DNA of 64,000 nucleotides from Escherichia phage vB_EcoM_DE16: the sequence record OP595145.1. One strand, 5' to 3'. The notes below the pieces were generated by a model that was given only the letters and a program-made list of their open reading frames with translations, had not been told where the DNA came from and made no database searches. The translations under genes were made by a program, and so were the position numbers. Below are positions 46,268-60,422 of this stretch, one piece after another. Within the stretch, counting starts at the first letter, position 1, and each line of letters starts with the position of its first letter.

Positions 46268-46328
46268 TTGTTTTCTCCTTTTGTTTGGTAGGAGTTGATC
46301 TTAACAAGATTAAAAAGTATGTCAATAC

Positions 46329-46356
46329 TTGATCTGAAATTATTTTCAGGTATCAT
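46329..46356 (+). promoter_or_regulatory. candidate sigma70-like promoter for the rightward early operon
   Basis: TTGATC, 16-nt spacer, TATCAT; about 25 nt upstream of the first plus-strand early gene. Confidence 0.35.
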
Positions 46357-46381: not shown

Positions 46382-46675
46382 ATGATGAACATTACTTTAG
46401 CAACTAAGAATATTTCTGAAACAATTAACGGTTTTGGTGTGATTGTAGCCTTGCACGGTAACAATGAGAAATGGTTGGCTTCTTTTGAAGAGGATCGTCA
46501 ACACAACATTATTTTAGATGCCCCTATAAAAGTTATGCATATCGTTGGTGAAAGCAAAGTGCTCACTTCCTCCCGTTCAAAAGAACAAATTACAAATGAA
46601 TTAGTAAAACTGCTTGACAATGTTCTTAACATGTTTGATAATGCACCCATCGATACAAAACGTGTCTTAATGTGA
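46382..46675 (+). CDS. hypothetical early protein
   Basis: 97 aa; AGAGAGG RBS. Confidence 0.4.
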   Translation: MMNITLATKNISETINGFGVIVALHGNNEKWLASFEEDRQHNIILDAPIKVMHIVGESKVLTSSRSKEQITNELVKLLDNVLNMFDNAPIDTKRVLM

Positions 46676-46687
46676 GAGGAGAACAAA

Positions 46688-46975
46688 ATGTACTATTCAC
46701 AAGACGAAGTAGCAAACATTAAACTGGCAGTGGGAGATCTTATTGTGTCACCTAACTACTATTGGGATAACACAGATTTGGTTGAAGTAGTAACCCATGT
46801 TGGAGTTGAAGGTATTGTGCTCTACACACTAGGTGGAGGTGTTGTTGGGGAAATGGAACGTTATACGACAACGAAGAAACTGGTAAGCTCTTATCACATG
46901 TTTTTACACCAAGGTTCGGAAGAGTATACAGCTTTCTTGTTGAAATTAGATGCAGATCGGGAGAAGGCACGATGA
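46688..46975 (+). CDS. hypothetical early protein
   Basis: 95 aa; GAGGAG RBS. Confidence 0.4.
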   Translation: MYYSQDEVANIKLAVGDLIVSPNYYWDNTDLVEVVTHVGVEGIVLYTLGGGVVGEMERYTTTKKLVSSYHMFLHQGSEEYTAFLLKLDADREKAR

Positions 46976-47328
46976 AAATTGTACACGATGAAATTCAAAT
47001 AGAAGAAAGTGACCTGATGGATTTGGATGCAGCTTTGGGGAAGGTAATCTATGCAGGAATTAAAGCCTTCCGTGAGAAGGCAAACAATAGCACGTTTGTC
47101 ATGATCCCCACTAAACTGATGCGTGTTTTGTATCCAAATAGAAGTGCGCCGTATACAGATGAAGAAGAGGAGACAGGTAGAAGAGAGTGGTTAAATATTT
47201 TAGAAAAGATGGAGAATGCTTTTATTGATAGTGGTAATCCAGAAATCGTGTATGCTCAAGATCAAAGGAAGGCACGATTAGAGGGCCGTCTTTTATTCGC
47301 TAGTTATTTTGATAATCTTTGGAGCTAA
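46972..47328 (+). CDS. hypothetical early protein
   Basis: 118 aa; ATGA overlap with upstream gene. Confidence 0.4.
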   Translation: MKIVHDEIQIEESDLMDLDAALGKVIYAGIKAFREKANNSTFVMIPTKLMRVLYPNRSAPYTDEEEETGRREWLNILEKMENAFIDSGNPEIVYAQDQRKARLEGRLLFASYFDNLWS

Positions 47329-47330
47329 AT

Positions 47331-47507
47331 ATGTCTGAATTCTTCACAATGGTTTTCTTAGGGATCTATCTGATTATTAGTGCTGTTGGCTTAATCATGT
47401 CTCTAATAGAGGAAATGGGAATTAAGTGGAATTGTGCATTCGGTATAGCTCTTATGCTCACTCCAGTTTGGATCTACATTTGCAAATCGGTTGAACTAAT
47501 TGGTTAA
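47331..47507 (+). CDS. small membrane protein
   Basis: Track ORF trimmed to ATG; 58 aa; two hydrophobic helices. Confidence 0.35.
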   Translation: MSEFFTMVFLGIYLIISAVGLIMSLIEEMGIKWNCAFGIALMLTPVWIYICKSVELIG

Positions 47508-47517
47508 TGGAGGTAAT

Positions 47518-47856
47518 ATGTTTAGTAAAGAAATGAGAGAGGTGATCGCTACTCTGGTAGTTGATCATGGTGTTGAAGTTGAGCGTCACGTTTGGAAAGA
47601 TGAGCCTCCTTTCTTTGATTTGGCATCACGGGCTAAAAGTCACATGTATCTCCTTGAAGATGATAAGGATTTTATTCTGCGTATGCGTTATGATCGAGAG
47701 TTTAGAATTCCTCTTGACACAGATCCTGATGATGTAGTATTGTGGTTGGCAGAGCATTTCGCATTTAACGCTCTACATGGAAGAAGTTTTGGTAATGAAC
47801 GTTGGGATACCATTTGTCGTAAACATAATATTGAACCAGAATACGGGAGTATGTAA
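47518..47856 (+). CDS. hypothetical early protein
   Basis: Track ORF (TTG) trimmed to ATG after GGAGG. Confidence 0.4.
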   Translation: MFSKEMREVIATLVVDHGVEVERHVWKDEPPFFDLASRAKSHMYLLEDDKDFILRMRYDREFRIPLDTDPDDVVLWLAEHFAFNALHGRSFGNERWDTICRKHNIEPEYGSM

Positions 47857-48107
47857 TGTTAAGTATCAAACCTAAAATGATTACTGAAGATCAAAAAGAT
47901 TACATTTATAAATGTGGTCGGGTGTGGAAAGAATACACTAAAGGTAATGAAGTTATTGTAGTTACGGAACATACTATTTCTTTATCAGATCTTTTTGGGG
48001 ATTATTTGCAAGTCATTAAAATTGGTATTGACAGAGGTTTGGTGCAGGTGTTAACATTATCCCAAGTTGAAGCAGAACACTTAGACAAAATCATTGTCGA
48101 GTTCTAA
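47856..48107 (+). CDS. hypothetical early protein
   Basis: 83 aa; TAATG coupling. Confidence 0.4.
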   Translation: MLSIKPKMITEDQKDYIYKCGRVWKEYTKGNEVIVVTEHTISLSDLFGDYLQVIKIGIDRGLVQVLTLSQVEAEHLDKIIVEF

Positions 48108-48120
48108 GAGGAGAAAGAAT

Positions 48121-48285
48121 ATGATCTCTTTAGAATCAATAGCTTTTAAGAAGGGGTATACCGCAGGGTTCAAGTTTGGTATGTTTAATAAAGTAAATCC
48201 ATATTGTCCAATGACACACAAAAAGGAATTCGAAGAATGGGAAGATGGATTTTCTAAAGGCTATCAGGCAAAAGGTTGGTTGTAA
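48121..48285 (+). CDS. hypothetical small protein
   Basis: Track ORF trimmed to ATG after AAGAGGAG; 54 aa. Confidence 0.35.
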   Translation: MISLESIAFKKGYTAGFKFGMFNKVNPYCPMTHKKEFEEWEDGFSKGYQAKGWL

Positions 48286-48294
48286 GGAGAGAAT

Positions 48295-48459
48295 ATGATT
48301 TTAAACTTCATCATCAACTTGTGTTTGACATTGGGATTACTCTGTGCAATAGTATCCCCTCTGGTTGGTGAATATTGTTCTGAACTGGCGATGTTTATAG
48401 TTCTTGGTGCGGCTATTGCTAATATGTTTGTCGCTGCGATTTGTATGTTGTGGGAATAG
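48295..48459 (+). CDS. small membrane protein (54 aa), not in supplied ORF track
   Basis: TAAGGAGAG RBS; two hydrophobic segments. Confidence 0.35.
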   Translation: MILNFIINLCLTLGLLCAIVSPLVGEYCSELAMFIVLGAAIANMFVAAICMLWE

Positions 48460-48470
48460 GAGGGAAGTTT

Positions 48471-48827
48471 ATGAAAAAACTAATCTTAGCCACATTGCTG
48501 GCTACCGTAAGCTTCACCACTTACGCTCAAAAATTTGTAGCAGTTAAAACGGATATTGGTAAAGATGTTGTGATCACAGGCAACAAATTTTACTATACAC
48601 CTGGAAATGGTGTTCTAGAAGAGTGCAAAGATGTTGAGGCATATACAGGAAAAGAAGATAACACGGAACGTCCTTTTTATTCGATTATAGCTACTTGCAA
48701 AAATGAAATAGTAGCTATTAAACAATACAAAGATGCCCCTGGAGGAGAGTACTTATTAGTCAAGAATATTAAGAGTGAAAAAACTGCAAAGTTTACAGTA
48801 ATTATTTTAAAAGGAGAAACGTTCTAA
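48471..48827 (+). CDS. secreted protein with signal peptide
   Basis: Track ORF trimmed to ATG after GGAGGGAAG; MKKLILATLLATVSFTTYAQ. Confidence 0.4.
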   Translation: MKKLILATLLATVSFTTYAQKFVAVKTDIGKDVVITGNKFYYTPGNGVLEECKDVEAYTGKEDNTERPFYSIIATCKNEIVAIKQYKDAPGGEYLLVKNIKSEKTAKFTVIILKGETF

Positions 48828-49966
48828 TGAAATACACTATTTTTGGAGATGTAGCTGTTGTAAATAAGGAATATGGCGTTGAAGCTAATAAACTTCCTGC
48901 TGGAGTTTGGGTTGTCAACTGCGATCCGCACGGTAACTACTCTTTAGCGCGTGGCGAAAGTTTCTCTCTTCCGAACACTCTTTATGGGGAAACTAAAGAT
49001 CGCGCCGCACATGTTATTAAAACATTTGCTCGTCGTAGTAAAGAAGGTAAAAATACTGGGGTGTTACTGACAGGCACAAAAGGTAGTGGTAAGACGATGT
49101 TAGCTAAACTAATTAGCATGTCCCTAATGTCCACAGAAGGTTTAGGTATTCCAACCATTTTGGTTACACAGCCTTACACAGATGCTGGATTCTTAGAATT
49201 TATGAGTAAAATTACAGATCGTGCTGTTGTTTTATTTGACGAATTTGATAAAGTGTATGCTAAGAAAGAAGATCAGGAAGCACTGTTGACCTTGTTGGAT
49301 GGAACAGGAAGTGGGAATAAACTTTACATCCTCACTAAAAATAGTGGCTATATCTCGGAATATTTTGTAAACCGTCCTAGTCGTATTTATTACAGTTTCA
49401 ATTACGATAAACTGTCTAGTGAAACTATGTTAGATTACTTGGATAAGAACTTGGTAAATAAAAAGCACGTAGATAACTTCCAACGTTTATGGGATGTTAG
49501 CACAGAGCTGTCTTTCGATGTTATTCAAGGCATTGTAGAAGAATTGAATTTCTATCCAAAAATGACTTTTAAAGAATGTCTTGAAATGATGGGTATTTCT
49601 TTAGGCAACGATGCTAAATGGAATGTGGCTTCTATCGTAGCTAATGGCAAAACCCTGAAGGTGAATTGGATCAATAACTGGCACGACTTCACCCCTACTA
49701 AGTTTTTGTCGGGTTCTTGTTCCCTGAACATCTATCTGCAAAGCTTGAAAGATGATGAAGTGGAAGCAATGGAAACCAACAGTTATGTTATCCTGGATGA
49801 AGATGGCGATCCACATATTGATCTGTGTGCAACTGCTGATGGTCTAACTTGTGATCTGATTGAAGGTGGTAAGATTCTGGTGATGAGCACTACACCAGGA
49901 AACACTCTGCGAGTGGTGCTGGAGCCTGTAACACAACGTTCCACTACACTGGGTAGCGTGTTCTGA
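48827..49966 (+). CDS. AAA+/P-loop ATPase
   Basis: 379 aa; Walker A GTKGSGKT; Walker B VVLFDEFD. Confidence 0.55.
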   Translation: MKYTIFGDVAVVNKEYGVEANKLPAGVWVVNCDPHGNYSLARGESFSLPNTLYGETKDRAAHVIKTFARRSKEGKNTGVLLTGTKGSGKTMLAKLISMSLMSTEGLGIPTILVTQPYTDAGFLEFMSKITDRAVVLFDEFDKVYAKKEDQEALLTLLDGTGSGNKLYILTKNSGYISEYFVNRPSRIYYSFNYDKLSSETMLDYLDKNLVNKKHVDNFQRLWDVSTELSFDVIQGIVEELNFYPKMTFKECLEMMGISLGNDAKWNVASIVANGKTLKVNWINNWHDFTPTKFLSGSCSLNIYLQSLKDDEVEAMETNSYVILDEDGDPHIDLCATADGLTCDLIEGGKILVMSTTPGNTLRVVLEPVTQRSTTLGSVF

Positions 49967-49982
49967 TACAGCACAAATAACT

Positions 49983-50008
49983 AAACCCGCTTCGGCGGGT
50001 TTTGTTAT
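49983..50008 (+). terminator. rho-independent terminator
   Basis: AAACCCGC-TTCG-GCGGGTTT hairpin followed by TGTTAT. Confidence 0.7.
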
Positions 50009-50046
50009 ATTGACTTCAGACTTATAGGGAGAGAGGATAGATAAAG

Positions 50047-51249
50047 ATGGCGAAGACGTTAGAACAGTATATAGGAGAATGTAAACCAATAGCGGAAGCT
50101 AAAGGATATGAGATTATAGGGATTGTAGAGCCATTTAAAGGTGTGCACACGAAGATGATCAACTTCTGCCCTAATCATGGGGAGTGGAGAACATCCACAT
50201 TTGCCAATTTTAAACGTGGTAAGTCTGGTTGCCCTGGGTGCAAAAATGAGAAAGCAAGACAAGACAACAGTAAAAACCTAGATTATTACCTTTCGGAATG
50301 TAAGCCTATTGCTGAAGCTAAGGGAATCGAGATTTTAGGCATTAATGGAGAGTTTATAGGTGTACATACAAAGATGATCAACCTTTGTCCTGAGCACGGG
50401 GAATGGCGAACATTAACATTTCATAATCTTAAGGGTGGTAGTGGTTGTCCTAAATGCGGTAACAAAAGATCTAGGAATTCTAAAATACTCCCAGACGATC
50501 AGCACATACAAGACTTCATTAATACAGGAAAGTTTAAAGAGGGTACAATCTTCACTAAAACAGATAAAAAACGAGGCCGCGATTCTTTATGGTGTGTAGA
50601 GTGTCCTACCTGCTCTCACGATGAGTATGTGCAAGCTGGGGTGTGTGATGGTAAGTTTTATGTCGCAGGGAATGACCTTAAACAAGGGAAGATTCCTTGC
50701 CGTTGTGCAACTAACTGTCATTACACAGAAGCCCAGATTACCTATAGGGTAAAAAAGGCAGTAGAAAGGAAAGGGTATATCTGGGTAGGTTGGATCGGGA
50801 AACCGTCTGTAAGATTAGGTAAGTTTAAATATGGATGTAAGAAACATGGGGTACAAATAGGACGTGCCAGTGGTTTGTTAAATCATGGCACTGGTTGTCC
50901 GCAATGTGCTAACCAGACACAACAACAATGTTACATTAACCACATTCATGATGAACAAGGTATTCTCTGTGCTTTGAAATTTGGAATTGCCAATAATAGT
51001 GATCGCCGTATCAAAAAACAAAATAGTCGTAATGTGTTTACTATGAAACAGGTCCAAGTGTGGCACTTCCCTACTGTGAAGCAATGCAAAGATGCAGAGA
51101 AGCGTTGTAAGCGTGTCCTTCACACGGAAGCAGTGAGCAAATATGCTATGCCAGATGGCTACACAGAAACAGTAGAGTTATCTTGCATGGCCTCAATACA
51201 AAACATTTATAAACTTTATGGTGGAACATTACAGGAGGAAACATGTTAG
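50047..51249 (+). CDS. Cys/His-rich protein with tandem ~55-aa zinc-ribbon-like repeats
   Basis: 400 aa; two near-identical modules (ECKPIAEAKG...GVHTKMIN-x-CP-x-HGEWRT-x-TF...GCP-x-CxN) plus further CxxC/CP-x-C pairs. Confidence 0.5.
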   Translation: MAKTLEQYIGECKPIAEAKGYEIIGIVEPFKGVHTKMINFCPNHGEWRTSTFANFKRGKSGCPGCKNEKARQDNSKNLDYYLSECKPIAEAKGIEILGINGEFIGVHTKMINLCPEHGEWRTLTFHNLKGGSGCPKCGNKRSRNSKILPDDQHIQDFINTGKFKEGTIFTKTDKKRGRDSLWCVECPTCSHDEYVQAGVCDGKFYVAGNDLKQGKIPCRCATNCHYTEAQITYRVKKAVERKGYIWVGWIGKPSVRLGKFKYGCKKHGVQIGRASGLLNHGTGCPQCANQTQQQCYINHIHDEQGILCALKFGIANNSDRRIKKQNSRNVFTMKQVQVWHFPTVKQCKDAEKRCKRVLHTEAVSKYAMPDGYTETVELSCMASIQNIYKLYGGTLQEETC

Positions 51250-51608
51250 TTGACGTTCAAATTATGCGCAATGAAAGGATGGATTTCTTTGAAGCAGTAG
51301 AGGAACATCTGATTCGATGGGATTATGAATTTGTTCCTGCTGGATGTGGACCAGTAGAGCATTTAGCGGAAGACGATGATGTATACATGATCATTCGTCA
51401 AGTGTACCAGACAGACCAGTGTGAAGAAACTCCCGAACTGATTTTGTTTGAGTGTAAAGATCTTGCAAAATATTTTGACTATGGCGGAAAAGAGGGTCAT
51501 AATCTCTCCAGATACAATAAACGTCTACTTATCTTAGACTACATGCGGAACAACAAACACAAACTCATCGACGCAGACGCAGTTTATGGCTACTGGTGGA
51601 TGGACTAA
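51243..51608 (+). CDS. hypothetical early protein
   Basis: 121 aa; start overlaps upstream gene. Confidence 0.4.
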   Translation: MLVDVQIMRNERMDFFEAVEEHLIRWDYEFVPAGCGPVEHLAEDDDVYMIIRQVYQTDQCEETPELILFECKDLAKYFDYGGKEGHNLSRYNKRLLILDYMRNNKHKLIDADAVYGYWWMD

Positions 51609-51621
51609 CAAAGGAGAAATT

Positions 51622-51801
51622 ATGGCACGTTTAGCAGATCATGAAATCTTTAAACCTATTCTGAACCACTATGATGAACTTAAAGCAGTGTTGGATTGTT
51701 ATAGAGAGGATGAAGAACGTTTGGAAGTCAATCTTAAGATAGTTCTGATGAAAGCTTTTCAAGACGGGCAAGCTAAAGTTTTAGAAGGCATGAAAAAATG
51801 A
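51622..51801 (+). CDS. hypothetical small protein
   Basis: Track ORF trimmed to ATG after AAAGGAG; 59 aa. Confidence 0.35.
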   Translation: MARLADHEIFKPILNHYDELKAVLDCYREDEERLEVNLKIVLMKAFQDGQAKVLEGMKK

Positions 51802-52340
51802 GAATAACTGATGAATATGTATTCTTCTTTTCACATAAAGATGTGTTTAGTAATTGGTATATTGCACCCTTTACAGAAACTGAACCAGGTTACAATGAGA
51901 CTTTCTGTTGTGTTGAGCAATATATGATGTGGCGTAAGGCTTTGCTGTTCAAGGATCATGCGATTGCAGCAGCTATCCTTGATCACTCGACTATACGTGA
52001 CAACGAGAGGAAACAAGCTTATTACAAACGTATGGGTAGGGCAGTGTCGGATTTTGATAACAACGTATGGGAAGAGAACCGTGAGCGTATTGTTATGCGA
52101 GGTTTATGCTTGAAATATGTACAGAATCCAGATTTGTATGCAGACTTACACCTTTACCAATACAAAACGTTTGTTGAAGCAAGCCCCTACGATAAGGTTT
52201 ACGGAATTGGAATGGGGATGTATGAACCAGGGGTGCTAAACCCTGCCACCTGGAAAGGGCAGAATCTTTTAGGCAAATATCATAATAAACTGATCGAAAT
52301 ACTTTTCCCAGACAAAATACCGCAAAGACGATATTTGTGA
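51798..52340 (+). CDS. NADAR (YbiA-like) domain protein
   Basis: 180 aa; FFFS...FSNWY, FCCVEQYMMWRKALLF, ASPYDKVYGIGMG follow the NADAR pattern. Confidence 0.55.
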   Translation: MRITDEYVFFFSHKDVFSNWYIAPFTETEPGYNETFCCVEQYMMWRKALLFKDHAIAAAILDHSTIRDNERKQAYYKRMGRAVSDFDNNVWEENRERIVMRGLCLKYVQNPDLYADLHLYQYKTFVEASPYDKVYGIGMGMYEPGVLNPATWKGQNLLGKYHNKLIEILFPDKIPQRRYL

Positions 52341-52395
52341 TATTTTAACTTTTTTCATTTTTAGAACAAAGGTGTCACTTTGTAGCACAGAAATA

Positions 52396-52430
52396 AGGCT
52401 CCTACAGCACCGTAGAGAGCCTATTATTTT
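52396..52430 (+). terminator. terminator-like hairpin after the NADAR gene
   Basis: AGGCTCCTAC-AGCACC-GTAGAGAGCCT imperfect stem followed by ATTATTTT. Confidence 0.45.
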
Positions 52431-52581
52431 GTCCTATACAAACCTTGTCTTTTTCAGTTTGCATCACTAGGATTCGATCTGAGTGGGTTCCTGAAGGTCT
52501 GCCAATAAGATTAAAGGTTATCTCAAATTCCCATTACCTATTATCTCAAAAATCCCTCAAATTATTTAAACTTTTTAAGAA

Positions 52582-52758
52582 TTTACAAAAGTGAAAGTTG
52601 AAAACCAAAATTTAAAGTTTAGGAAAATTATCTTAAAATGTTAGATACAAAACAAAACTCAAAAGTCAAGGAAAATTTTAAAAATTTTGCGCGCCCACAG
52701 TATTTAAAGTTTTTTTGCTTTTACAAAAATGAAAGTACAAAAGCAAAATTTAAAGTTT
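52582..52758. repeat. AT-rich direct repeats (two ~39-bp copies) with embedded TTTAAAGTTT near-palindromes
   Basis: TTTACAAAAGTGAAAGTTGAAAACCAAAATTTAAAGTTT (52582-52620) vs TTTACAAAAATGAAAGTACAAAAGCAAAATTTAAAGTTT (52720-52758). Confidence 0.6.
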
Positions 52759-52807
52759 ACAAAAATTTATGCAGGTGGGAATGAGAAGAGTTCTCATGTG
52801 GAAATGC

Positions 52808-52886
52808 AAATGATAATGATTCGCATTTAGGTTTATAAATGAGATTGATTCTTATTCAATAAGGTAAATGATAATCATTCTCATTT
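52808..52886. promoter_or_regulatory. two Fur-box-like palindromic operators
   Basis: AAATGATAATGATTCGCATTT (52808-52828) and AAATGATAATCATTCTCATTT (52866-52886) vs Fur consensus GATAATGATAATCATTATC; also palindrome AATGAGAAGAGTTCTCATG at ~52779-52797. Confidence 0.45.
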
Positions 52887-53117
52887 AGAGAATGACGCGC
52901 AGGGGCGGTGTTTGTCTCGCGCTCCCGTGTCCCCTCGCCATGTAATAAGAATAACAGATCCAGCCAGGAAAGCAAGCGATTATTTTATCTTTACATTTCT
53001 TTACAAATATATAGCGCCCAGCCTACCGGCGATCAACCTTCCAACCAGCGCCCTGGTATGTTAGCCCCGCCTTTACGCCGTGGGGTGGCGCTTCCTCTTC
53101 TGTATGTAAAACAGTAT

Positions 53118-53160
53118 AAGCCCGATCCCTGGGCTTGTCAAGATTATTTTTTGTTTTCTT
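53118..53160 (+). terminator. terminator-like hairpin at the end of the GC-rich island
   Basis: AAGCCC-GATCCCT-GGGCTT stem then TTTTTTGTTTTCTT 10 nt downstream. Confidence 0.3.
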
Positions 53161-53519
53161 GCCAGGATAGGACACCTAACCAAAAATGCATATCGCCCCG
53201 CGCCCCTGGTGGGATCTTGCTTTCCCCGCCGCCACTGCAAGCCCATAAATAACCATCAGCGAACGGATCAAAGTTTTCTATTTCTTCCACCTTATGATCG
53301 CCCAGGTTGAGAACGGTTTCAACCTTTAAGCCCGTTGCGCTTGCTACCTGGTGCACCGTGCCGCCTTGCCAGCCCAATGAGTGCATAAGGTGTAATGTAG
53401 TATTTGTCATGGTATCGCCCTTTCTTTGTTGTGCGCCCTGGTTGGCGCGGTAGAAAGATGATAGCCGTTTCCTTCATATACAGCAAGCAAAAAGAAAATA
53501 AAAAAGATTGAAAAAGTGG

Positions 53520-53548
53520 TTGACGTTCCTCACCTGGTAGCGTAGTAT
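53520..53548 (+). promoter_or_regulatory. sigma70-like promoter with long leader
   Basis: TTGACG, 17 nt, TAGTAT; ~135-nt leader before ATG 53683. Confidence 0.4.
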
Positions 53549-53682
53549 TCATCTTGTCGAGGGGGCGCGGCACAACGACAATAAACAACAGGAGGGCGCA
53601 ATGTAGGACGGGCAAAGGTGAGGATCTCCATAATCCACCGTCCACCAACAAAAAACATCATTCATCACCTGGAGTTAAAATC

Positions 53683-53880
53683 ATGGCAACATTGCACATA
53701 GTAGCGAAAGCAGGACAAATCAGCGTCGTGGTAAACGGTTTTACTGAGTTCAGTCATCCCCAGGATGATCATGAAACGGTTTTATCTTTTATTGATTCCT
53801 TGTTAGAAATGGGAGTCATTACAGAAGACCAGCACGCTACAAAATGCAAGCGCGTTAATCAAATTGCAGGGATAGAATAA
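53683..53880 (+). CDS. hypothetical early protein
   Basis: Track ORF trimmed to ATG after GGAG; 65 aa. Confidence 0.35.
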   Translation: MATLHIVAKAGQISVVVNGFTEFSHPQDDHETVLSFIDSLLEMGVITEDQHATKCKRVNQIAGIE

Positions 53881-53886
53881 AAAGTA

Positions 53887-53946
53887 TTGACAACAAACAA
53901 CAACCTGATAAGATGTATCACATAGGGCGGGAAGTGGTTTCCCGCT
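53887..53946 (+). promoter_or_regulatory. promoter plus 5'UTR stem-loop cassette
   Basis: TTGACA, 16 nt, TAAGAT; hairpin GGGCGGGAA-GTGG-TTTCCCGC; then AGAGAGATTATCATC-ATG. Confidence 0.5.
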
Positions 53947-53970
53947 CGTAACAGAAGAGAGATTATCATC

Positions 53971-54243
53971 ATGGCATCATATAGCGCAACAATGATCGTA
54001 GCTGGCACAACTGGTAAACCTATGAGCGGTGGCGGATCTTTCGCTAATATCAATATTGACGGGCGTTTATCCCTGGACGCAGCGATTGCCATTGCACGGG
54101 AAACATTTAAAAAAGAATGTAATTTCAATAAGCAAGATTATTTAGGTTTCGCTATTGAAAAAACCGCGCGCTTTGTTGATTATAAAAGCCCGAAAATGAT
54201 CGACACTACACTAAAAGCGCAAGATGTAGCGTTTTTGCTTTAA
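53971..54243 (+). CDS. hypothetical early protein
   Basis: 90 aa; cassette-supplied RBS and ATGGC start. Confidence 0.45.
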   Translation: MASYSATMIVAGTTGKPMSGGGSFANINIDGRLSLDAAIAIARETFKKECNFNKQDYLGFAIEKTARFVDYKSPKMIDTTLKAQDVAFLL

Positions 54244-54246
54244 GGC

Positions 54247-54302
54247 TTGACATTAACGAATAATTTGTTAATATGTTACATAAAGCGGGAATAGTTCCCG
54301 CT
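54247..54302 (+). promoter_or_regulatory. promoter plus 5'UTR stem-loop cassette
   Basis: TTGACA, 16 nt, TAATAT; hairpin AGCGGGAA-TAG-TTCCCGCT. Confidence 0.5.
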
Positions 54303-54319
54303 ATTTGTAAGGTGGTAGA

Positions 54320-54577
54320 ATGTTTTACATCAAATTAAAAGGTCACGTGATCGCGTTCAAAGATAACGCTTTTTACAGATTAGCAAAATATGCGTTAATA
54401 CATCCCCACTATGTTTATATAAGGGGGCGTGATGAAATAAATATCTTTGATCAAACAACATGCGAGAACATCGAGATCCGCAAGGTTGGCGTACGTGACT
54501 ATCGTACATCTTTCTACCCTTGCAAGGATTCAGCAAGTCTTTTTAAAGTATGCCAATTGTTGAAAAAAGGTGGTTAA
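54320..54577 (+). CDS. hypothetical early protein
   Basis: 85 aa; GGTGG RBS. Confidence 0.4.
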   Translation: MFYIKLKGHVIAFKDNAFYRLAKYALIHPHYVYIRGRDEINIFDQTTCENIEIRKVGVRDYRTSFYPCKDSASLFKVCQLLKKGG

Positions 54578-54578
54578 T

Positions 54579-55136
54579 ATGGGCCGCGAATATGTGATCC
54601 AGTCTTGGGTAAAACATGAAGCAGATGATCCGCGCATCATTCCCGATCATCTTATCGATGAATCCACGGGATATAGCGGTGAGCAAATAGGTAACAGATT
54701 AGCACGTAGTAACGGCAACGTAAAAGCGCGTTATGTGCGCCCTGGCTGGCTGGCAAATGGTAACGCTGATTTATCCAGTGCGGAAGATGCGAGCGACGGC
54801 GCGAAAGATAATCCTTTGTACAAAATTGATCCGGCTTTTCGTGTCCTGGATGAATACCCCAGCAAGATAGCGGCGCTCGATCAGGCCCTGGAAAGTAAGC
54901 GCATCACCTGGACCGCTTACAACATGGCAAAAAACGTACTTGATGGTAAATTGATTCAAGCTGAAAGAAAATTAGCCAAAATTGCAGCCATAGCCCAGGA
55001 GGAAGACGAGGAGACAACGGAAGAGGAAGAGTACGAAGAGATCCCGCCGTTGTTGTGTGTTGATGCTTTTCCTGATTATCAGCCGACAGAGGAAGAAAAA
55101 AGGATCGCACTAGAAAACTTTGAAAATAGTCTTTGA
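54579..55136 (+). CDS. hypothetical protein with acidic C-terminal region
   Basis: Track ORF trimmed to ATG after AAAGGTGG; 185 aa. Confidence 0.4.
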   Translation: MGREYVIQSWVKHEADDPRIIPDHLIDESTGYSGEQIGNRLARSNGNVKARYVRPGWLANGNADLSSAEDASDGAKDNPLYKIDPAFRVLDEYPSKIAALDQALESKRITWTAYNMAKNVLDGKLIQAERKLAKIAAIAQEEDEETTEEEEYEEIPPLLCVDAFPDYQPTEEEKRIALENFENSL

Positions 55137-55189
55137 CATATCGCCGCCACTGGCATAATATTTACCACGTAGGGCGGCAATGGTGCCGC
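55134..55189 (+). promoter_or_regulatory. promoter plus 5'UTR stem-loop cassette
   Basis: TTGACA, CATAAT/TAATAT; hairpin GGCGGCA-ATGG-TGCCGC. Confidence 0.5.
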
Positions 55190-55218
55190 TCATAGTGAAA
55201 TTATGCAAGAGGCTTACA

Positions 55219-55314
55219 ATGATTAATAAAGAAAATAGCTTGACGGTTGGAACGATTAACGCTATCATTCTAGCCGTTCCATTTTGGGTTGTAGTAGCGG
55301 CTATTATTTTCTAA
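55219..55314 (+). CDS. small membrane peptide (31 aa), not in supplied ORF track
   Basis: CAAGAGG RBS; MINKENSLTVGTINAIILAVPFWVVVAAIIF. Confidence 0.3.
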   Translation: MINKENSLTVGTINAIILAVPFWVVVAAIIF

Positions 55315-55322
55315 AAATATTC

Positions 55323-55383
55323 TTGACAACGTTTTTTAATCTGATAAGATGTATCACATAGGGCGGCGGAATACTTCCCCGCC
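55323..55383 (+). promoter_or_regulatory. promoter plus 5'UTR stem-loop cassette
   Basis: TTGACA, 16 nt, TAAGAT; hairpin GGGCGGCGGAA-TAC-TTCCCCGCC. Confidence 0.5.
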
Positions 55384-55406
55384 AAAACAAAAAAAAGGGT
55401 AACACA

Positions 55407-55769
55407 ATGAGCAAGCAAATCAATACTATCATGTTTAATCTGGTATCTTTCCGCGATGATATGAAAAATTTACCACGTGAAACGGTTGATATCCATGTTT
55501 CAGCTTATCGCGCCCTTATTGATATGTTACCGCTAAAACGTGATCAACATGCCGCTAATATGATGCTTAATGCTATGCTTAAAAAGATGATTCAAACGGA
55601 TCTTACTCTGGCGTATGAGTATCAAGGGCGCTTATATGCGACTTACAACAAAGCGGTACCTGGTCTGGGAAGTACCGAAGAGTTGCACGGCTTAAACCTG
55701 GATCAAAACACTTGGGATAGTATGCGCCGCGTTATGGTATGGGCCGAAAGCGGTAAAATTTACGAATAA
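55407..55769 (+). CDS. hypothetical early protein
   Basis: 120 aa. Confidence 0.45.
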   Translation: MSKQINTIMFNLVSFRDDMKNLPRETVDIHVSAYRALIDMLPLKRDQHAANMMLNAMLKKMIQTDLTLAYEYQGRLYATYNKAVPGLGSTEELHGLNLDQNTWDSMRRVMVWAESGKIYE

Positions 55770-55775
55770 AAACGG

Positions 55776-55832
55776 TTGACACTGTTTAAACTTCTGGTAT
55801 AGTTTATCACGTAGGGCGGCAATGGTGCCGCC
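55776..55832 (+). promoter_or_regulatory. promoter plus 5'UTR stem-loop cassette
   Basis: TTGACA, 16 nt, TATAGT; hairpin GGCGGC-AATGG-TGCCGCC. Confidence 0.5.
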
Positions 55833-55852
55833 AACAATAAAAGGTTAACATC

Positions 55853-56032
55853 ATGGCTATCATTGCAAAAACTGAGATTATAGGTTTAGATTCGATCCTC
55901 CTGGCTTATGAGGAAACTTTAAAAATGTATGTAGTGACCTATGGTGATTATGTGCGTGAATACGAATACATTGATCTTGCTTTCGAATGTTACATTCGCC
56001 AGGTCAATAAAGCCTATAACGATTATCGTTAA
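55853..56032 (+). CDS. hypothetical small protein (59 aa), not in supplied ORF track
   Basis: AAAGG RBS; ATGGCT start as in other cassette genes. Confidence 0.35.
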   Translation: MAIIAKTEIIGLDSILLAYEETLKMYVVTYGDYVREYEYIDLAFECYIRQVNKAYNDYR

Positions 56033-56051
56033 AAGTTTTAGTCTTATACTA

Positions 56052-56103
56052 TTGACAATGAGTGATAGTATAAGCATAATAACTTTTATCGGGAATACTT
56101 CCC
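56052..56103 (+). promoter_or_regulatory. promoter plus short 5'UTR stem-loop cassette
   Basis: TTGACA, 17 nt, CATAAT; hairpin GGGAA-TAC-TTCCC. Confidence 0.45.
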
Positions 56104-56129
56104 ACTAACCAAAAAGAGAGATTATCATC

Positions 56130-56495
56130 ATGGCTATTAATATCAATGTTTCCGCTTATGCTACCCTGGCTAACACGGCTAAAATTGAATTATCCAGCAT
56201 TGAAGCGGTGCACATTAGCGCCCGTCGCTGGTTTCAACAGTCCTACGGTAACACATATTTTTCTTTAATGGTTGACGTTGAGATCGGCGGTAAACTGATC
56301 GAGGTGGTTAACGTTCCGTTTCAATATGGCTATGGTGATCATTTTGATACCGTCGCCCTGGAAGAATTTAGCAAGGTTATTAATATGGAAGGTAAAGAGT
56401 TTTCACGCGGCGCGTATCTTTCCCGTTTTTGCCGTGACAATGGGATCACTGTATACAGTCATGCGAGCGATGTTAAACGTAAAAAAGATTTATAA
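56130..56495 (+). CDS. hypothetical early protein
   Basis: 121 aa; AGAGAGATTATCATC-ATGGCT. Confidence 0.45.
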   Translation: MAININVSAYATLANTAKIELSSIEAVHISARRWFQQSYGNTYFSLMVDVEIGGKLIEVVNVPFQYGYGDHFDTVALEEFSKVINMEGKEFSRGAYLSRFCRDNGITVYSHASDVKRKKDL

Positions 56496-56501
56496 AAAGC
56501 A

Positions 56502-56560
56502 TTGACAGCACGAATAAAAAGAGTAAACTGTATTACATAGAGAGCGGGAATACTTCCCGC
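56502..56560 (+). promoter_or_regulatory. promoter plus 5'UTR stem-loop cassette
   Basis: TTGACA, 16 nt, TAAACT; hairpin GCGGGAA-TAC-TTCCCGC. Confidence 0.5.
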
Positions 56561-56584
56561 CTCACTGAAAAAGAGATTAATATC

Positions 56585-56824
56585 ATGGCTAAATCAAAAA
56601 TGTTCTTAGGTCACAAAAATAAAACTCATTGGAATGTAAGCCTTTGGATTAATAATGACGAATCATTATATCGGTTGGCGAAAGAATTTATCGCCGCTAA
56701 TACTAATCGTAATGATGCTGCCCGTGATATGATGTTATTCCTGGAACAAACTGGACAAGATAAAACTCCAGACGGTTTCAAGTATAGCACTACAGCGATC
56801 CGCGCCGCGATGGTTGGAATGTAA
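56585..56824 (+). CDS. hypothetical early protein
   Basis: 79 aa. Confidence 0.45.
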   Translation: MAKSKMFLGHKNKTHWNVSLWINNDESLYRLAKEFIAANTNRNDAARDMMLFLEQTGQDKTPDGFKYSTTAIRAAMVGM

Positions 56825-56833
56825 TAAAAACAG

Positions 56834-56893
56834 TTGACAACGTTTAAAATTAGTGTAAGATGTATCACATAGGGCGGGAAGTGGTTTCCCGCC
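56834..56893 (+). promoter_or_regulatory. promoter plus 5'UTR stem-loop cassette
   Basis: TTGACA, 16 nt, TAAGAT; hairpin GGGCGGGAA-GTGG-TTTCCCGCC (same as the 53887 copy). Confidence 0.5.
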
Positions 56894-56914
56894 AAAACAG
56901 AGAGATTAAAGATT

Positions 56915-57142
56915 ATGGCTATCAATATTGTTCGCGTATCCGGCACCGTTGGCACTTCCCAGGTTATTGCAGTTGTAACAAACAAAAAGATTAATGATGT
57001 ATGTGAGATCTTGAATAAGTGGGCTGTTGCTAATTTTGGGGAATATGCAAGCGTCGAGTACATCGAATCCTACCAGGTGCCAACCATCAGCCTAACCGAT
57101 CTCAACGTTGATCGCCTGTTATGCCTGGATGAATTAATCTGA
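56915..57142 (+). CDS. hypothetical early protein
   Basis: 75 aa. Confidence 0.45.
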   Translation: MAINIVRVSGTVGTSQVIAVVTNKKINDVCEILNKWAVANFGEYASVEYIESYQVPTISLTDLNVDRLLCLDELI

Positions 57143-57151
57143 AAAAGATTG

Positions 57152-57207
57152 TTGACACGGGAAAGAAAAAGAGTAAACTGTATTACGTAGGGCGGCAATA
57201 GTGCCGC
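57152..57207 (+). promoter_or_regulatory. promoter plus 5'UTR stem-loop cassette
   Basis: TTGACA, 16 nt, TAAACT; hairpin GGCGGCA-ATAG-TGCCGC. Confidence 0.5.
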
Positions 57208-57232
57208 TCACAACAGAAGAGAGATTATCACG

Positions 57233-57448
57233 ATGGCTAATATCCGTACACTGTTAAAAAATGCAAGTCAAGTTTTATTTTCAGATGACGAGTATTTCAA
57301 TAAAGACATTACAGGCGTAAAAAATCTTAAAGATGTAAAGGATGTGATAGGTATTCGCGGATCTTTACGTAAAGGTGACTACTACGGCAATAAAGTACAA
57401 TATAAATTAAATCAGTCTTATGATTTTACTTTGACAATTATTTCATAA
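57233..57448 (+). CDS. hypothetical early protein
   Basis: 71 aa. Confidence 0.45.
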   Translation: MANIRTLLKNASQVLFSDDEYFNKDITGVKNLKDVKDVIGIRGSLRKGDYYGNKVQYKLNQSYDFTLTIIS

Positions 57449-57454
57449 AACCGC

Positions 57455-57516
57455 TTGCAATCTTAATAAAATAAAGTAAACTGTATTACATCAAGGCGGC
57501 GGAATGGTCCACCGCC
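57455..57516 (+). promoter_or_regulatory. promoter plus 5'UTR stem-loop cassette
   Basis: TTGCAA, 16 nt, TAAACT; hairpin GGCGGCGGA-ATGG-TCCACCGCC. Confidence 0.45.
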
Positions 57517-57540
57517 TAACAAAGAGAAGAGGAAAACACC

Positions 57541-57708
57541 ATGATCACTTTCGCTACCCGTGAAGCCGCTCGCAACGTTGCCCGTAAAGTTAACGCCGCC
57601 AACCTGGGCGCTACGTTTAAAGCACCTGTAAAAGATGAATCAGGGAAATGGATCTTCCCTGGTCTGCGTCATGCTGACAAGTTAGGTACTTTAAGCCTTA
57701 AAAAATAA
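57541..57708 (+). CDS. hypothetical small basic protein (55 aa), not in supplied ORF track
   Basis: AGAGGAAAA RBS; MITFATREAARNVARKVNAANLG... Confidence 0.35.
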   Translation: MITFATREAARNVARKVNAANLGATFKAPVKDESGKWIFPGLRHADKLGTLSLKK

Positions 57709-57711
57709 TCG

Positions 57712-57749
57712 TTGACTTTTCGTTATAGCGCCTTATAATGGGCGCTATA
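57712..57749 (+). promoter_or_regulatory. sigma70-like promoter with -10 box inside a perfect palindrome
   Basis: TTGACT, 16 nt, TATAAT; inverted repeat TATAGCGCC / GGCGCTATA brackets the -10. Confidence 0.45.
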
Positions 57750-57782
57750 GAGAAGAGAAACCACTACTAACAAGGAAACATC

Positions 57783-58004
57783 ATGATCACTTTCGCTATT
57801 GTCGCCGTTGTCGCTGGTCAGGTTTACGTAAACGATACATTCACCACAGAAGACAAGGCCGCAGGAGACATAACCGCCGTTTACAATAAGTGCAAGGCAG
57901 TAGAAAGGATGTTAGCGCCTTGTATGTTAATGAGTGAACGCCAGGACGGGATAACAGTGTTTACTAACATTGAAACAGGGTACCAAATGGTAGTAACAAA
58001 ATAA
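57783..58004 (+). CDS. hypothetical early protein
   Basis: 73 aa; hydrophobic N-terminus MITFAIVAVVAG. Confidence 0.4.
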   Translation: MITFAIVAVVAGQVYVNDTFTTEDKAAGDITAVYNKCKAVERMLAPCMLMSERQDGITVFTNIETGYQMVVTK

Positions 58005-58007
58005 AGC

Positions 58008-58065
58008 TTGACACGGATTTAATTTTCAGTAAACTGTTACACGTAGGGCGGGAATAGTTCCCGCT
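58008..58065 (+). promoter_or_regulatory. promoter plus 5'UTR stem-loop cassette
   Basis: TTGACA, 16 nt, TAAACT; hairpin GGGCGGGAA-TAG-TTCCCGC. Confidence 0.5.
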
Positions 58066-58082
58066 AAAAAGAGAGAAAGACC

Positions 58083-58436
58083 ATGAAAGCACAAAATGCA
58101 ATTAAAGAGTACATCCTTGCCGCTATCGATTTTAATGATTACGGTATTACAACCGAAAAAGAGAAGATCGCGGAATTGATGCGCCGTTTTAATTCAGAGT
58201 ACTGGTACCCTGATAACCAATCACGTTTTAATTATAGTATTGTTAAAGCACTTGCATCATGGTTACAAGGTTTGCCATCAGATATCAATATCGCTTTCGA
58301 ATATTGGGAAATTGATCGCTTGTTAACATCCTGGGGATACATTAAAGAGAATAGCAACGATGATAAAATCCAACGAGAAAGGGAAAATTATTGGCTTTAT
58401 ATTGCAGGCGTGATCCTTGCTTGCTCTTATGAATGA
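58083..58436 (+). CDS. hypothetical early protein
   Basis: 117 aa. Confidence 0.45.
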   Translation: MKAQNAIKEYILAAIDFNDYGITTEKEKIAELMRRFNSEYWYPDNQSRFNYSIVKALASWLQGLPSDINIAFEYWEIDRLLTSWGYIKENSNDDKIQRERENYWLYIAGVILACSYE

Positions 58437-58442
58437 TAAACC

Positions 58443-58496
58443 TTGACAATTTTACAAAACAGTTTAAATTAACAATATAGCGGCAATGGTGCCGCT
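58443..58496 (+). promoter_or_regulatory. promoter plus 5'UTR stem-loop cassette
   Basis: TTGACA, 16 nt, TAAATT; hairpin AGCGGCA-ATGG-TGCCGCT. Confidence 0.5.
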
Positions 58497-58515
58497 CATA
58501 TGAAGAGGAAACAAA

Positions 58516-58662
58516 ATGAATACATCTAATCGCGCAGAAAAAATTCAATCTTCCAAGATCCGCAAGGCCTGGAACGAGGAAGTGATCCGCAAAGGCGACA
58601 AGCGCAATAAAACAAAGCGCGGGAAGAGTGACAAATATAATTGGATGGATTTAGAGGATTAA
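58516..58662 (+). CDS. hypothetical small basic protein (48 aa), not in supplied ORF track
   Basis: GAAGAGGAAA RBS; followed by a strong terminator. Confidence 0.35.
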   Translation: MNTSNRAEKIQSSKIRKAWNEEVIRKGDKRNKTKRGKSDKYNWMDLED

Positions 58663-58668
58663 CATAAC

Positions 58669-58696
58669 AAGGGCGCACCAAGCGCCCTTTCTTTTT
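58669..58696 (+). terminator. rho-independent terminator
   Basis: GGGCGC-ACCAA-GCGCCC hairpin followed by TTTCTTTTTAT. Confidence 0.7.
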
Positions 58697-58717
58697 ATAT
58701 GTAGAGGATAAACAAAG

Positions 58718-58903
58718 ATGACTTTAAACGAGCTTAAAACAGCCTACAACGCAACGTTAAAAATAGCCGTGCGTTACCGTGATGCGTACGGTTTTATCGC
58801 GCAGGGCGTGATCCTGGGCTTTTCTGACGATGGTTTGATCTATGTTGATGCACATCATAACAAGGTAAAACCTGAAAACGTCATTAGCATAAAATATCTT
58901 TAA
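58718..58903 (+). CDS. hypothetical early protein
   Basis: 61 aa; GAGGA RBS. Confidence 0.4.
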   Translation: MTLNELKTAYNATLKIAVRYRDAYGFIAQGVILGFSDDGLIYVDAHHNKVKPENVISIKYL

Positions 58904-58909
58904 AAGTGG

Positions 58910-58969
58910 TTGACACCATAACCGGACCTGTTAAACTGTATTACATCAGGCGGGGAATAGTTCCCCACC
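58910..58969 (+). promoter_or_regulatory. promoter plus 5'UTR stem-loop cassette
   Basis: TTGACA, 16 nt, TAAACT; hairpin GGCGGGGAA-TAG-TTCCCCACC. Confidence 0.5.
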
Positions 58970-58988
58970 ATACAAAAAGGTAAATATT

Positions 58989-59195
58989 ATGATCACAACA
59001 AAACAAGAAAAAATTATTACAGACATTGCCGCAGTAGCCGCTATTGCTATTATTGGTACCTACTATGACACCGCGCGTCCTTCCTCCTTGCATGAGGTCG
59101 CCGCCGTTGCATCAGTTGGCGTACTGTTTTACGTTGGTAAACGCTATTTATCACCAATGATTAACAAGCTGACACCGTGGAAAAATAAAGGTTGA
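58989..59195 (+). CDS. small membrane protein
   Basis: 68 aa; two hydrophobic segments. Confidence 0.4.
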   Translation: MITTKQEKIITDIAAVAAIAIIGTYYDTARPSSLHEVAAVASVGVLFYVGKRYLSPMINKLTPWKNKG

Positions 59196-59250
59196 TCCTG
59201 TTTTATATTGTGTTATAGTTATCGTGTAGGGCGGCAATGGTGCCGCGCCC
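59192..59250 (+). promoter_or_regulatory. promoter plus 5'UTR stem-loop cassette
   Basis: TTGATC, 16 nt, TATAGT; hairpin GGCGGCA-ATGG-TGCCGC then GCCCTTTT. Confidence 0.45.
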
Positions 59251-59266
59251 TTTTGAGGATGCAATC

Positions 59267-59551
59267 ATGAGTAAAGCTAACACCGTGTTAATGTTTTCCC
59301 TAGTTAATGATGCCGCTCACTTGTCCAACATGACGCAGGAGGGTAACACATTAACGGCAACATTCACCAATAAGCTTGACCGAGTGATCATCATCTCACT
59401 GAAAACAGTTAGTAAAGGCTTTTACTCGTTAGCTTATCATTGGATCACCGATACCGATGAGACAAGCCAGGACTATAGCGCCCCTTTCCCTGAATCAATG
59501 GCACGGGAGATCATCGCCGCCGTTGTAAATGATGGTTTGTTTACTGCATAA
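59267..59551 (+). CDS. hypothetical early protein
   Basis: Track ORF trimmed to ATG after GAGGA; 94 aa. Confidence 0.4.
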   Translation: MSKANTVLMFSLVNDAAHLSNMTQEGNTLTATFTNKLDRVIIISLKTVSKGFYSLAYHWITDTDETSQDYSAPFPESMAREIIAAVVNDGLFTA

Positions 59552-59566
59552 AAATTTAGAAAAGGC

Positions 59567-59623
59567 TTGCAATAATTTTGAGATAGTGTATATTTAATTC
59601 ATAGGGCGGCGGGAATAGTTTCC
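59567..59623 (+). promoter_or_regulatory. promoter plus degenerate 5'UTR stem-loop cassette
   Basis: TTGCAA, 16 nt, TATATT; decayed hairpin GGGCGGCGGGAATAGTTTCC. Confidence 0.4.
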
Positions 59624-59646
59624 AAAGCAAACGAGAGGATTACACG

Positions 59647-59766
59647 ATGAGCAAGTACACAGTAGAATACACGGTAGAAAATCCGGCAGTATCCGAAGGT
59701 AAAAAGATGACATTTGCCATCAGTATAATCGCTTTCGTTGTCACTATCTTATCAATCATCTTATAA
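59647..59766 (+). CDS. small membrane peptide (39 aa), not in supplied ORF track
   Basis: GAGAGGA RBS; C-terminal TM segment; coordinates approximate. Confidence 0.3.
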   Translation: MSKYTVEYTVENPAVSEGKKMTFAISIIAFVVTILSIIL

Positions 59767-59776
59767 GGTGCACACC

Positions 59777-59938
59777 ATGAAAACAACAGACATTATCAAA
59801 GAGATCGCCCTTGCCGCTGGCGTTGAAGTCGAGGAAGTGATCGCGCTCAATCTTACAGAAAACGATCTGCGCAACTATGAAGCGGAAAGCGTGAAAGCAA
59901 GCGGCGCGGTCCTGGTATATGATCCGGCTAACAAGTAA
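59777..59938 (+). CDS. hypothetical small protein
   Basis: Track ORF trimmed to ATG after AGGTG; 53 aa. Confidence 0.35.
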   Translation: MKTTDIIKEIALAAGVEVEEVIALNLTENDLRNYEAESVKASGAVLVYDPANK

Positions 59939-59947
59939 GGGGATAAC

Positions 59948-60058
59948 ATGAATCCGAAAGATATGCAAGCATGGAAAGGGTACGACGATCTAAGCGCCTT
60001 GCGCAATAAGTCAAGCCGTAACCTTAGACGGTTGGAAGCAAAGAAAAAGAAAAAATAG
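59948..60058 (+). CDS. hypothetical small basic peptide (36 aa), not in supplied ORF track
   Basis: AAGGGG RBS; Lys-rich C-terminus. Confidence 0.3.
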   Translation: MNPKDMQAWKGYDDLSALRNKSSRNLRRLEAKKKKK

Positions 60059-60059
60059 T

Positions 60060-60115: not shown

Positions 60116-60136
60116 TCACAAGAAGAGAGAAAAATC

Positions 60137-60421: not shown

Positions 60422-60422
60422 T

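Follow-up and report, generated by a model that had tools for sequence, protein, structure and literature searches.

The window analysed here, a stretch of 64,000 nucleotides (64 kb), belongs to a phAPEC8-like phage (Phapecoctavirus, Stephanstirmvirinae), and more than 60 phAPEC8-like phages are 95-99% identical to the region of interest. Rightward tail-fibre genes extend up to approximately 11 kb and are followed by a leftward block of replication and nucleotide-metabolism genes (approximately 11.3-46.3 kb), which encodes a family-A DNA polymerase, a T7 gp4-like primase-helicase, a helicase and ribonucleotide reductases. At the right end of this block, divergent promoters mark the change to rightward genes (Table 1). 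The initial annotation had placed the repeat locus exactly at this change of direction, a placement that is not borne out, since both the GC skew and the ORFs turn at approximately 46.3 kb, approximately 6 kb to the left of the repeats, and the genes leading up to the locus are already rightward. In phage phiWec186, an extra ORF of approximately 1.1 kb is inserted at the strand-switch region. Among the rightward genes, the one for a CapR-domain/HNH-type endonuclease (50047-51249) ranges in length from 999 to 1461 nt in close relatives and is probably a mobile homing endonuclease.

To the right of the locus, a small leftward gene is followed by approximately 40 very small rightward cassette genes, which fill the window from 53554 to 64000 and continue to the genome end. 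An individual near-consensus promoter (TTGACA-16-TAAnnT, in many cases with TG upstream) precedes about 20 of them, and several also have a terminator. This field is an early 'host-takeover' segment, and TTGACA-16-TAAnnT is the real early promoter type of the phage.

The position of the locus relative to the genome ends can be read from phage Schickermooser, which is 95-97% identical to the window and carries an exact 329-bp repeat at both ends of its record. The last base of the window corresponds to position 149376 of that record, and the terminal repeat begins approximately 1.5 kb past the right end of the window, approximately 12.7 kb to the right of the repeat array. In phage BME3, the annotated terminal repeat lies approximately 12 kb from the homologous site. 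The module described below is thus approximately 12-14 kb, or 8-9% of the genome, from the terminal repeat (genome-terminus sources: PMC6563267, PMC12210895).

The gene-free stretch and its repeat array

The gene-free stretch spans approximately 800 bp (52341-53143). It had been given as approximately 370 bp in the initial annotation, whose view that the repeats are non-coding was upheld in that no conserved ORF was found in the array, the plus-strand ORFs there not being kept among relatives. The ORF annotated as gp009 in phAPEC8 (window 52908-53252, plus strand) was rejected as a gene, since indels in relatives interrupt it; its position coincides in part with that of the conserved non-coding element. 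This ORF is annotated as a hypothetical protein, was entered split as a 'frameshift' in Schickermooser and is probably a mis-annotation.

Within the stretch, the parts follow one another in a fixed order: a terminator, short TATCTCAAA motifs, a three-unit array, four Fur-box-like palindromes and a highly conserved element, termed element E. On the minus strand, element E has two predicted sigma-70 promoters and two candidate small RNAs, together with an exact match to the CpxR consensus. The terminator hairpin is also annotated in phAPEC8 and is 84% conserved in phages PsgM04F and phiWec186. It is predicted to close the rightward operon and to be the next strong stop for leftward transcription. 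The locus had been described as lying between two terminators; only the left hairpin with its T tail is of the classical kind, and the right 'terminator' turned out to be a Fur-like palindrome.

Table 1 Features in and around the gene-free stretch, with positions in the window
Feature	Position	Strand	Remarks
Divergent promoters	46298-46356		Between leftward replication block and rightward genes; real strand switch
Rightward genes	46382-52340	+	AAA ATPase, CapR/HNH endonuclease, NADAR
Predicted intrinsic terminator hairpin (GGCTCCTAC-AGCACC-GTAGAGAGCC)	52397-52431 (hairpin 52397-52421)	both	T-rich tails; from the sequence
Three short TATCTCAAA-type motifs	52518-52562	+	TTATCTCAAAT at 52518, TTATCTCAAAA at 52541, CCCTCAAAT at 52554; spacing 23 and 13 bp
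Repeat unit 1	52558-52629	+	Kept in PsgM04F, phiWec186 and Klebsiella phage phi1_175008; copy-specific bases AAAACCAAA retained
Degenerate, shortened middle unit (ATTATCTTAAAA ... CAAAACTCAAAAGTCAAGG)	about 52627-52692	+	Ends in palindrome AAAATTTTAAAAATTTT; from unit alignment
Repeat unit 3	52696-52767	+	82% identical to unit 1; copy-specific AAAAGCAAA retained in PsgM04F, phiWec186 and phi1_175008
Four 19-bp Fur-box-like palindromes (AATGAKAAT-N-ATTMTCATT)	52780-52885	none	Starts at 52780, 52809, 52838 and 52867; 29-bp phase
Candidate small RNA 2	52862-52941	-	GC-rich hairpin, then 9-bp AU-rich hairpin, then U-rich tail; fold z-score -3.24
Predicted sigma-70 promoter P2 (TTGCTT-16-TATTCT)	52948-52975	-	In alignment, hexamers kept, spacer varies
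Exact CpxR consensus GTAAA-N5-GTAAA (GTAAAGAAATGTAAA)	52990-53004	-	Just upstream of P2 -35; sole match in window
Candidate small RNA 1	53005-53106	-	Core GGCGGGGCUAAC...GGUUGGAAGGU..AUCGCC nearly invariant in two subfamilies; fold z-score -2.25
Predicted sigma-70 promoter P1 (TTGACA-17-TATACT)	53113-53141	-	11/12 match; hexamers kept at 17-18 bp in every lineage, spacer sequence free
Small gene, 88 aa, phrog_19316	53144-53410	-	Co-oriented with P1 and P2; annotated in most relatives

Three related motifs were found where three CTCAAAT(T) repeats had been reported (52530-52565), their sequences and positions being refined as listed in Table 1. TATCTCAAA itself occurs three times in the 64 kb, two of the copies being among these motifs, which resemble ATTATTTAAA, the left end of each long unit. 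Counted as TTATYT(C)AAA, the short sites number 5-6 copies, and the 21-23 bp spacing applies to the first three only. Mydovirus carries a TATCTCAAA-type motif at the equal relative place.

The two 39-bp direct repeats reported previously, at 52582-52620 and 52720-52758, match at 35 of 39 positions with an offset of 138 bp and proved to be the core of a longer, 72-nt repeat pair (units 1 and 3). With the degenerate middle unit counted, the array consists of three units of approximately 69 bp. Extra copies of a near-palindrome were confirmed as well: TTTAAAGTTT occurs three times at the locus and five times in the whole window against 0.83 expected, and none of the shuffles gave five. No second copy of the repeat halves or of the whole 560-bp stretch was found elsewhere in the 64 kb. 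The array is 78.5% AT over 200 bp, the highest value of the 64 kb, and is the thermodynamically least stable 100-, 200- and 300-bp segment in the window.

The organisation of the array is conserved to a greater extent than its sequence. The order of the module recurs in Justusliebigvirus and in four genera of Vequintavirinae, and the repeat sequences are lineage-specific: TTATTTAAAG in Stephanstirmvirinae, CTCGATCG in most Vequintavirinae and ACTTGAGRGG in phage A73. The three copies are plain in the relatives, with spacings of 67/75 bp in alia, 75/67 bp in SSE121, 78/63 bp in CR9, 74/67 bp in Mydo and 84/64 bp in A73; an organisation of three units 63-84 bp apart is therefore retained in Justusliebigvirus, Seunavirus, Certrevirus, Mydovirus and A73. 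Because this organisation is kept while the unit sequence changes by lineage, the repeats are taken as sites for a co-evolving phage protein, and the array as a whole points to DNA sites for such a protein on very meltable DNA.

An ordinary sigma-70 promoter inside the repeats was rejected, as the sigma-70-like matches there are weak (9/12) and are lost in phi1_175008 and alia. The initial annotation had likewise favoured a cis-acting repeat array over a promoter, and these weak, unconserved matches, together with an organisation kept across two subfamilies, agree with that judgement. Pseudo-ToxI-like antitoxin repeats, an idea taken from phage phiTE, were dismissed for lack of any similarity to the array.

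Fur-box-like palindromes and element E

The palindromes between the array and element E appear to be sites for the host Fur protein, an assignment made by consensus match. Counted from the sequence, mismatches to the 7-1-7 consensus TGATAATnATTATCA number one in box 4 (TGATAATCATTCTCA), two in box 2 and four each in boxes 1 and 3; boxes 2 and 4 are rated as strong Fur-like boxes and boxes 1 and 3 as weak ones. Only one other site in the 64 kb matches the 7-1-7 consensus as well as boxes 2 and 4, and the best match in the window to the 19-bp Fur consensus GATAATGATAATCATTATC (16/19) lies at 52864. Among 5,426 E. coli genomes, the best match lies 73-104 bp upstream of sitA, and a Fur box upstream of the sit operon has been described (PMC6969025). 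Box 4 (AATGATAATCATTCTCATT) and the sitA operator (AATGATAATCATTTTCATT) are identical at 18 of 19 positions. In this match and in its close fit to the 7-1-7 consensus, box 4 is like the Fur operators of E. coli; unlike them, the four boxes stand at a regular 29-bp phase, lie downstream of promoters and not over them, and occur in a virulent phage. At least one Fur-like box is found directly before element E in every relative examined in Stephanstirmvirinae and Vequintavirinae.

Element E (52889-53112) is the best-conserved part of the gene-free stretch. It is 95-96% identical in PsgM04F and phiWec186 and 73% identical in phi1_175008, compared with 50% for the flanking gene there, and BLAST matches of 70-84% were obtained in Vequintavirinae (Seunavirus, Certrevirus, Mydovirus and others). 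Its identity between subfamilies exceeds that of the neighbouring genes. A host origin of the element was rejected, with no match in the 5,426 E. coli genomes. No Rfam family or tRNA matches element E, and a metagenome scan with a 14-mer gave 120 chance matches, none of them related.

An alignment of 25 distinct copies was used to read element E on the minus strand. P1 has counterparts in SSE121 (TTGCAA-17-TATAGT) and CR9 (TTGACG-17-CATAAT), and a hairpin formed by its GC-rich spacer may terminate the upstream small gene. P2 corresponds to TTGCAA-17-TATATT in CR9 and Mydo and to TTGATC-16-TATTAT in SSE121. The box upstream of P2 fits the CpxR consensus GTAAA-N4-8-GTAAA (PMC3158067) and 11 of the 12 lineages keep it unchanged. 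Its distance to the P2 -35 hexamer is 5 nt in Vequintavirinae and, one helical turn longer, 14-15 nt in Stephanstirmvirinae. By chance, 0.30 matches to the pattern are expected in the window, and at least one was found in 26 of 100 shuffles, so the pattern alone is not significant; the weight of the CpxR assignment comes from its conservation and position.

Two likely small RNAs are predicted downstream of these promoters. In RNA 2, the 9-bp hairpin is built from Fur box 4 and a conserved AGAAT, and the main helix shows two compensatory pairs and several GU/GC/AU switches that pair on the minus strand only, with 97.5% of cells paired against 29-51% with slid partners. In RNA 1, one covarying pair was found (GC in seven, AU in five) and little else, covariation being scant because the sequence is almost invariant. 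The minus strand came out only slightly better in the alifold strand test, and folding on this strand is therefore best argued from the GU pattern, which is the stronger evidence.

A possible transcription-fed origin of replication

The array appears to form the left half of a conserved non-coding control module, fenced by the predicted terminator on one side and by putative host-factor sites and inward-directed promoters on the other. Its AT-rich repeats are best explained as a protein-binding and unwinding array, made up of the three long units and the short TATCTCAAA-type sites. Among the functions considered for it, the binding and unwinding core of a transcription-fed replication origin is ranked first, with a probability of roughly 0.35, followed by a regulatory field for CpxR, Fur and small RNAs, then by an entry or sponge site like that of T5, and finally by a genome terminus; the remainder goes to other functions.

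The binding events, transcripts and replication function that we infer for such an origin would fit together as a lytic 'promoter plus unwinding element', comparable to the primary origin of T7 and to oriF of T4. Host RNA polymerase would initiate at the tandem leftward promoters P1 and P2, and transcription would cross a short structured G-rich leader and then the Fur-box array before entering the least stable DNA of the region. There, a lineage-specific phage protein on the repeat units would act with Pol A and the T7-like primase-helicase of the phage to melt the duplex and begin DNA synthesis, and the bidirectional terminator would close the unit. Fur on its boxes and CpxR at P2 would tune the amount of transcription that reaches the array.

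Several observations favour an origin. No other segment of 100-300 bp in the 64 kb is as AT-rich or as unstable as the array; its units are kept as an organisation across genera, with copy-specific bases conserved across lineages and with no conserved ORF or promoter inside them; P1 and P2 point into it from 170-370 bp away; and a conserved terminator stops transcription from the left. Moreover, a family-A DNA polymerase and a T7 gp4-like primase-helicase are among the replication proteins of the phage, and in T7 a replisome of this composition starts from origins made of a promoter and AT-rich DNA. Like the T7 primary origin and T4 oriF/oriG, the locus has tandem promoters directed into the least stable DNA of the region; it is intergenic and falls within the initial 10-15% of a linear genome whose terminal repeats are short. 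Unlike those origins, the promoters here are of the host sigma-70 type, the distance between promoters and AT-rich DNA includes the Fur-box array, and the AT-rich part consists of three long repeat units. With iteron origins (lambda ori, SPP1 oriL/oriR, P1 oriR, plasmid oriV), the array shares direct repeats in or next to an AT-rich stretch and a lineage-specific sequence.

Other observations weaken the case for an origin. The three units are far longer than the classical iterons of 17-22 bp, and neither a DnaA box (TTWTNCACA) nor an IHF consensus (WATCAANNNNTTR) was found in 52341-53560. No initiator-like gene adjoins the array, its neighbours being NADAR, the CapR/HNH endonuclease, the AAA ATPase and small uncharacterised proteins, and searches of Pfam, PHROG and PDB gave no support for any neighbouring protein as an initiator or DNA binder. 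The interval between the promoters and the array holds the Fur-like palindromes (approximately 110 bp) and, after RNA 2, a weak hairpin followed by a run rich in U that may act as a terminator; these could halt transcription before the unwinding element, so that transcripts may never arrive. The GC skew, which is dominated here by transcription, is greater on the left side of the locus than on its right side, opposite to the expectation for a simple bidirectional origin. No helical phasing of A-tracts at 10-10.5 bp was detected in the array, where an A-tract peak at 11.5 bp is the 12th harmonic of the 138-bp repeat. Finally, the core of RNA 1 is conserved beyond the needs of a primer RNA, which points to a trans-acting RNA.

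Other readings and wider meaning of the module

In a tentative alternative, less probable than an origin, the locus is a host-signal regulatory region and the module makes two small RNAs under the control of host CpxR (envelope stress) and Fur (iron). The array would then be an accessory silencer, an insulator or an operator field, bound by a phage protein or by a nucleoid protein such as H-NS, and would set or block transcription of the small RNAs or of a read-through RNA gated by Fur and ending at the terminator (52397-52431). The term 'regulatory hub' in the initial annotation is in keeping with the Fur-box array, the CpxR consensus and the two conserved promoters beside the repeats. A regulatory role is supported by the exact CpxR consensus one or two helical turns upstream of the P2 -35 hexamer and its near-complete invariance, by the two strong Fur boxes, one of them nearly identical to the sitA operator, by the compensatory and GU-type changes specific to the minus strand in the RNA 2 helix, and by the high identity of element E across subfamilies. 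However, the repeats lie downstream of both promoters and not upstream, where activator or UP-type sites act, and no conserved promoter was found in or beside the array. The Fur and CpxR assignments are made by consensus match only, and this reading gives no reason for three long lineage-specific units.

A counterpart of the locus may exist in T5, in Repeat Region 3 of the left terminal repeat, described as a candidate injection stop signal in a preprint that does not mention Fur (Davison, bioRxiv 10.1101/866236). By this analogy, which is unlikely to hold as an account of function, the module would act in cis at the inner boundary of the terminal early 'host-takeover' segment, where bound host proteins would hold back or arrange the entering DNA, or where host regulators would be titrated (a Fur sponge), and replication would not start there. 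In its favour, BLAST matches to the Fur-like palindromes were obtained in T5-like phages. In the T5-like phage phiR2-01, five Fur-like boxes are clustered (locus 2011-2187) against 0.54 expected; they occupy the non-coding end of its 9.9-kb terminal repeat, which corresponds to Repeat Region 3 of T5, beside direct repeats and a CTCAAAT-like run, and the parts have the matching order when counted from the genome end. In both systems, a long non-coding block with these three kinds of elements is found approximately 8% from a genome end and at the edge of an early gene segment, the distance of the module (8-9%) being close to the 7.9% of the T5 first-step segment. The intervening segment here consists of the approximately 40 small genes with their own TTGACA promoters, and the terminal repeat of Schickermooser has two further Fur-like boxes (at 77-91 and 256-270).

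The differences from the T5 region are also considerable. The module lies outside the terminal repeat, and most cassette genes are directed toward the genome end, opposite to the T5-like pre-early genes. The paired DnaA boxes that the Davison preprint proposes as the stop signal are absent from the module; among the relatives scanned, isolated single DnaA boxes occur in Mydo and phiTE and none elsewhere, whereas the T5-like locus has TTATCCACA. Conversely, the conserved promoters and candidate RNAs of the module were not found at the T5-like locus. The role of the T5 region is itself a proposal, and the analogy assumes which end enters first as well as stepwise entry in these myoviruses. No literature linking Fur to T5 was found in the papers searchable.

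A packaging or partition site, also proposed in the initial annotation, or a genome terminus is contradicted by the mapped terminal repeats and is very improbable: repeats next to host-factor-like sites do resemble cosB or pac layouts, and several public records begin or end within a few hundred bases of the locus, but record starts are arbitrary, the terminal repeats of Schickermooser and BME3 map approximately 12 kb or more away, and the 148-bp 'terminal repeat' of the phiWec186 record lies inside the extra ORF at the strand switch and is an assembly overlap.

In the rV5 genome paper, the region is marked only as a 'non-coding' box, and an origin was not found by skew analysis. In the papers searchable, the rV5, phi92 and phAPEC8 groups have no defined origin or control region, and neither a description of the module nor transcriptomes of these subfamilies were found. 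The conserved module around the repeats thus appears to be undescribed, the repeats themselves being an ordinary kind of feature.

A broader proposal, which we regard as doubtful, is that the locus is a host-state sensor common to several families of large virulent enterobacterial phages. If so, signals of iron and envelope stress would pass through Fur arrays, a CpxR-driven promoter and two conserved small RNAs to the repeat array, which, in its lineage-specific form, would gate replication or DNA entry, and the long-unexplained palindromes at the T5 injection stop would be Fur boxes. The shared Fur-like palindromes provide a new testable idea for the T5 injection-stop repeat region, and the module suggests that virulent phages read the iron and envelope status of their hosts. 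In addition, phages of the rV5, phi92 and phAPEC8 types are widely isolated for therapy, and a conserved module with testable host-factor sites offers engineering targets, showing where not to cut and what to delete.

Among the records compared, those of Campylobacter phages B15, C3 and A145 and of Acinetobacter phage ABPW7 show 91-99% identity in this region to phapecoctaviruses or justusliebigviruses of E. coli. For Pseudomonas phage PsgM04F the identity is approximately 72%, and its nearest match is the E. coli phage phiWec186. The host labels of the B15, C3, A145, ABPW7 and PsgM04F records look doubtful.

A short motif, GATATTTG/T, is present in two copies at the start of the non-coding stretch (window 52330-52346), overlapping the end of the NADAR gene. 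It occurs in 3-4 copies in the loci of Vequintavirinae and once in the Schickermooser terminal repeat (approximately 280-290), beside a Fur-like box.
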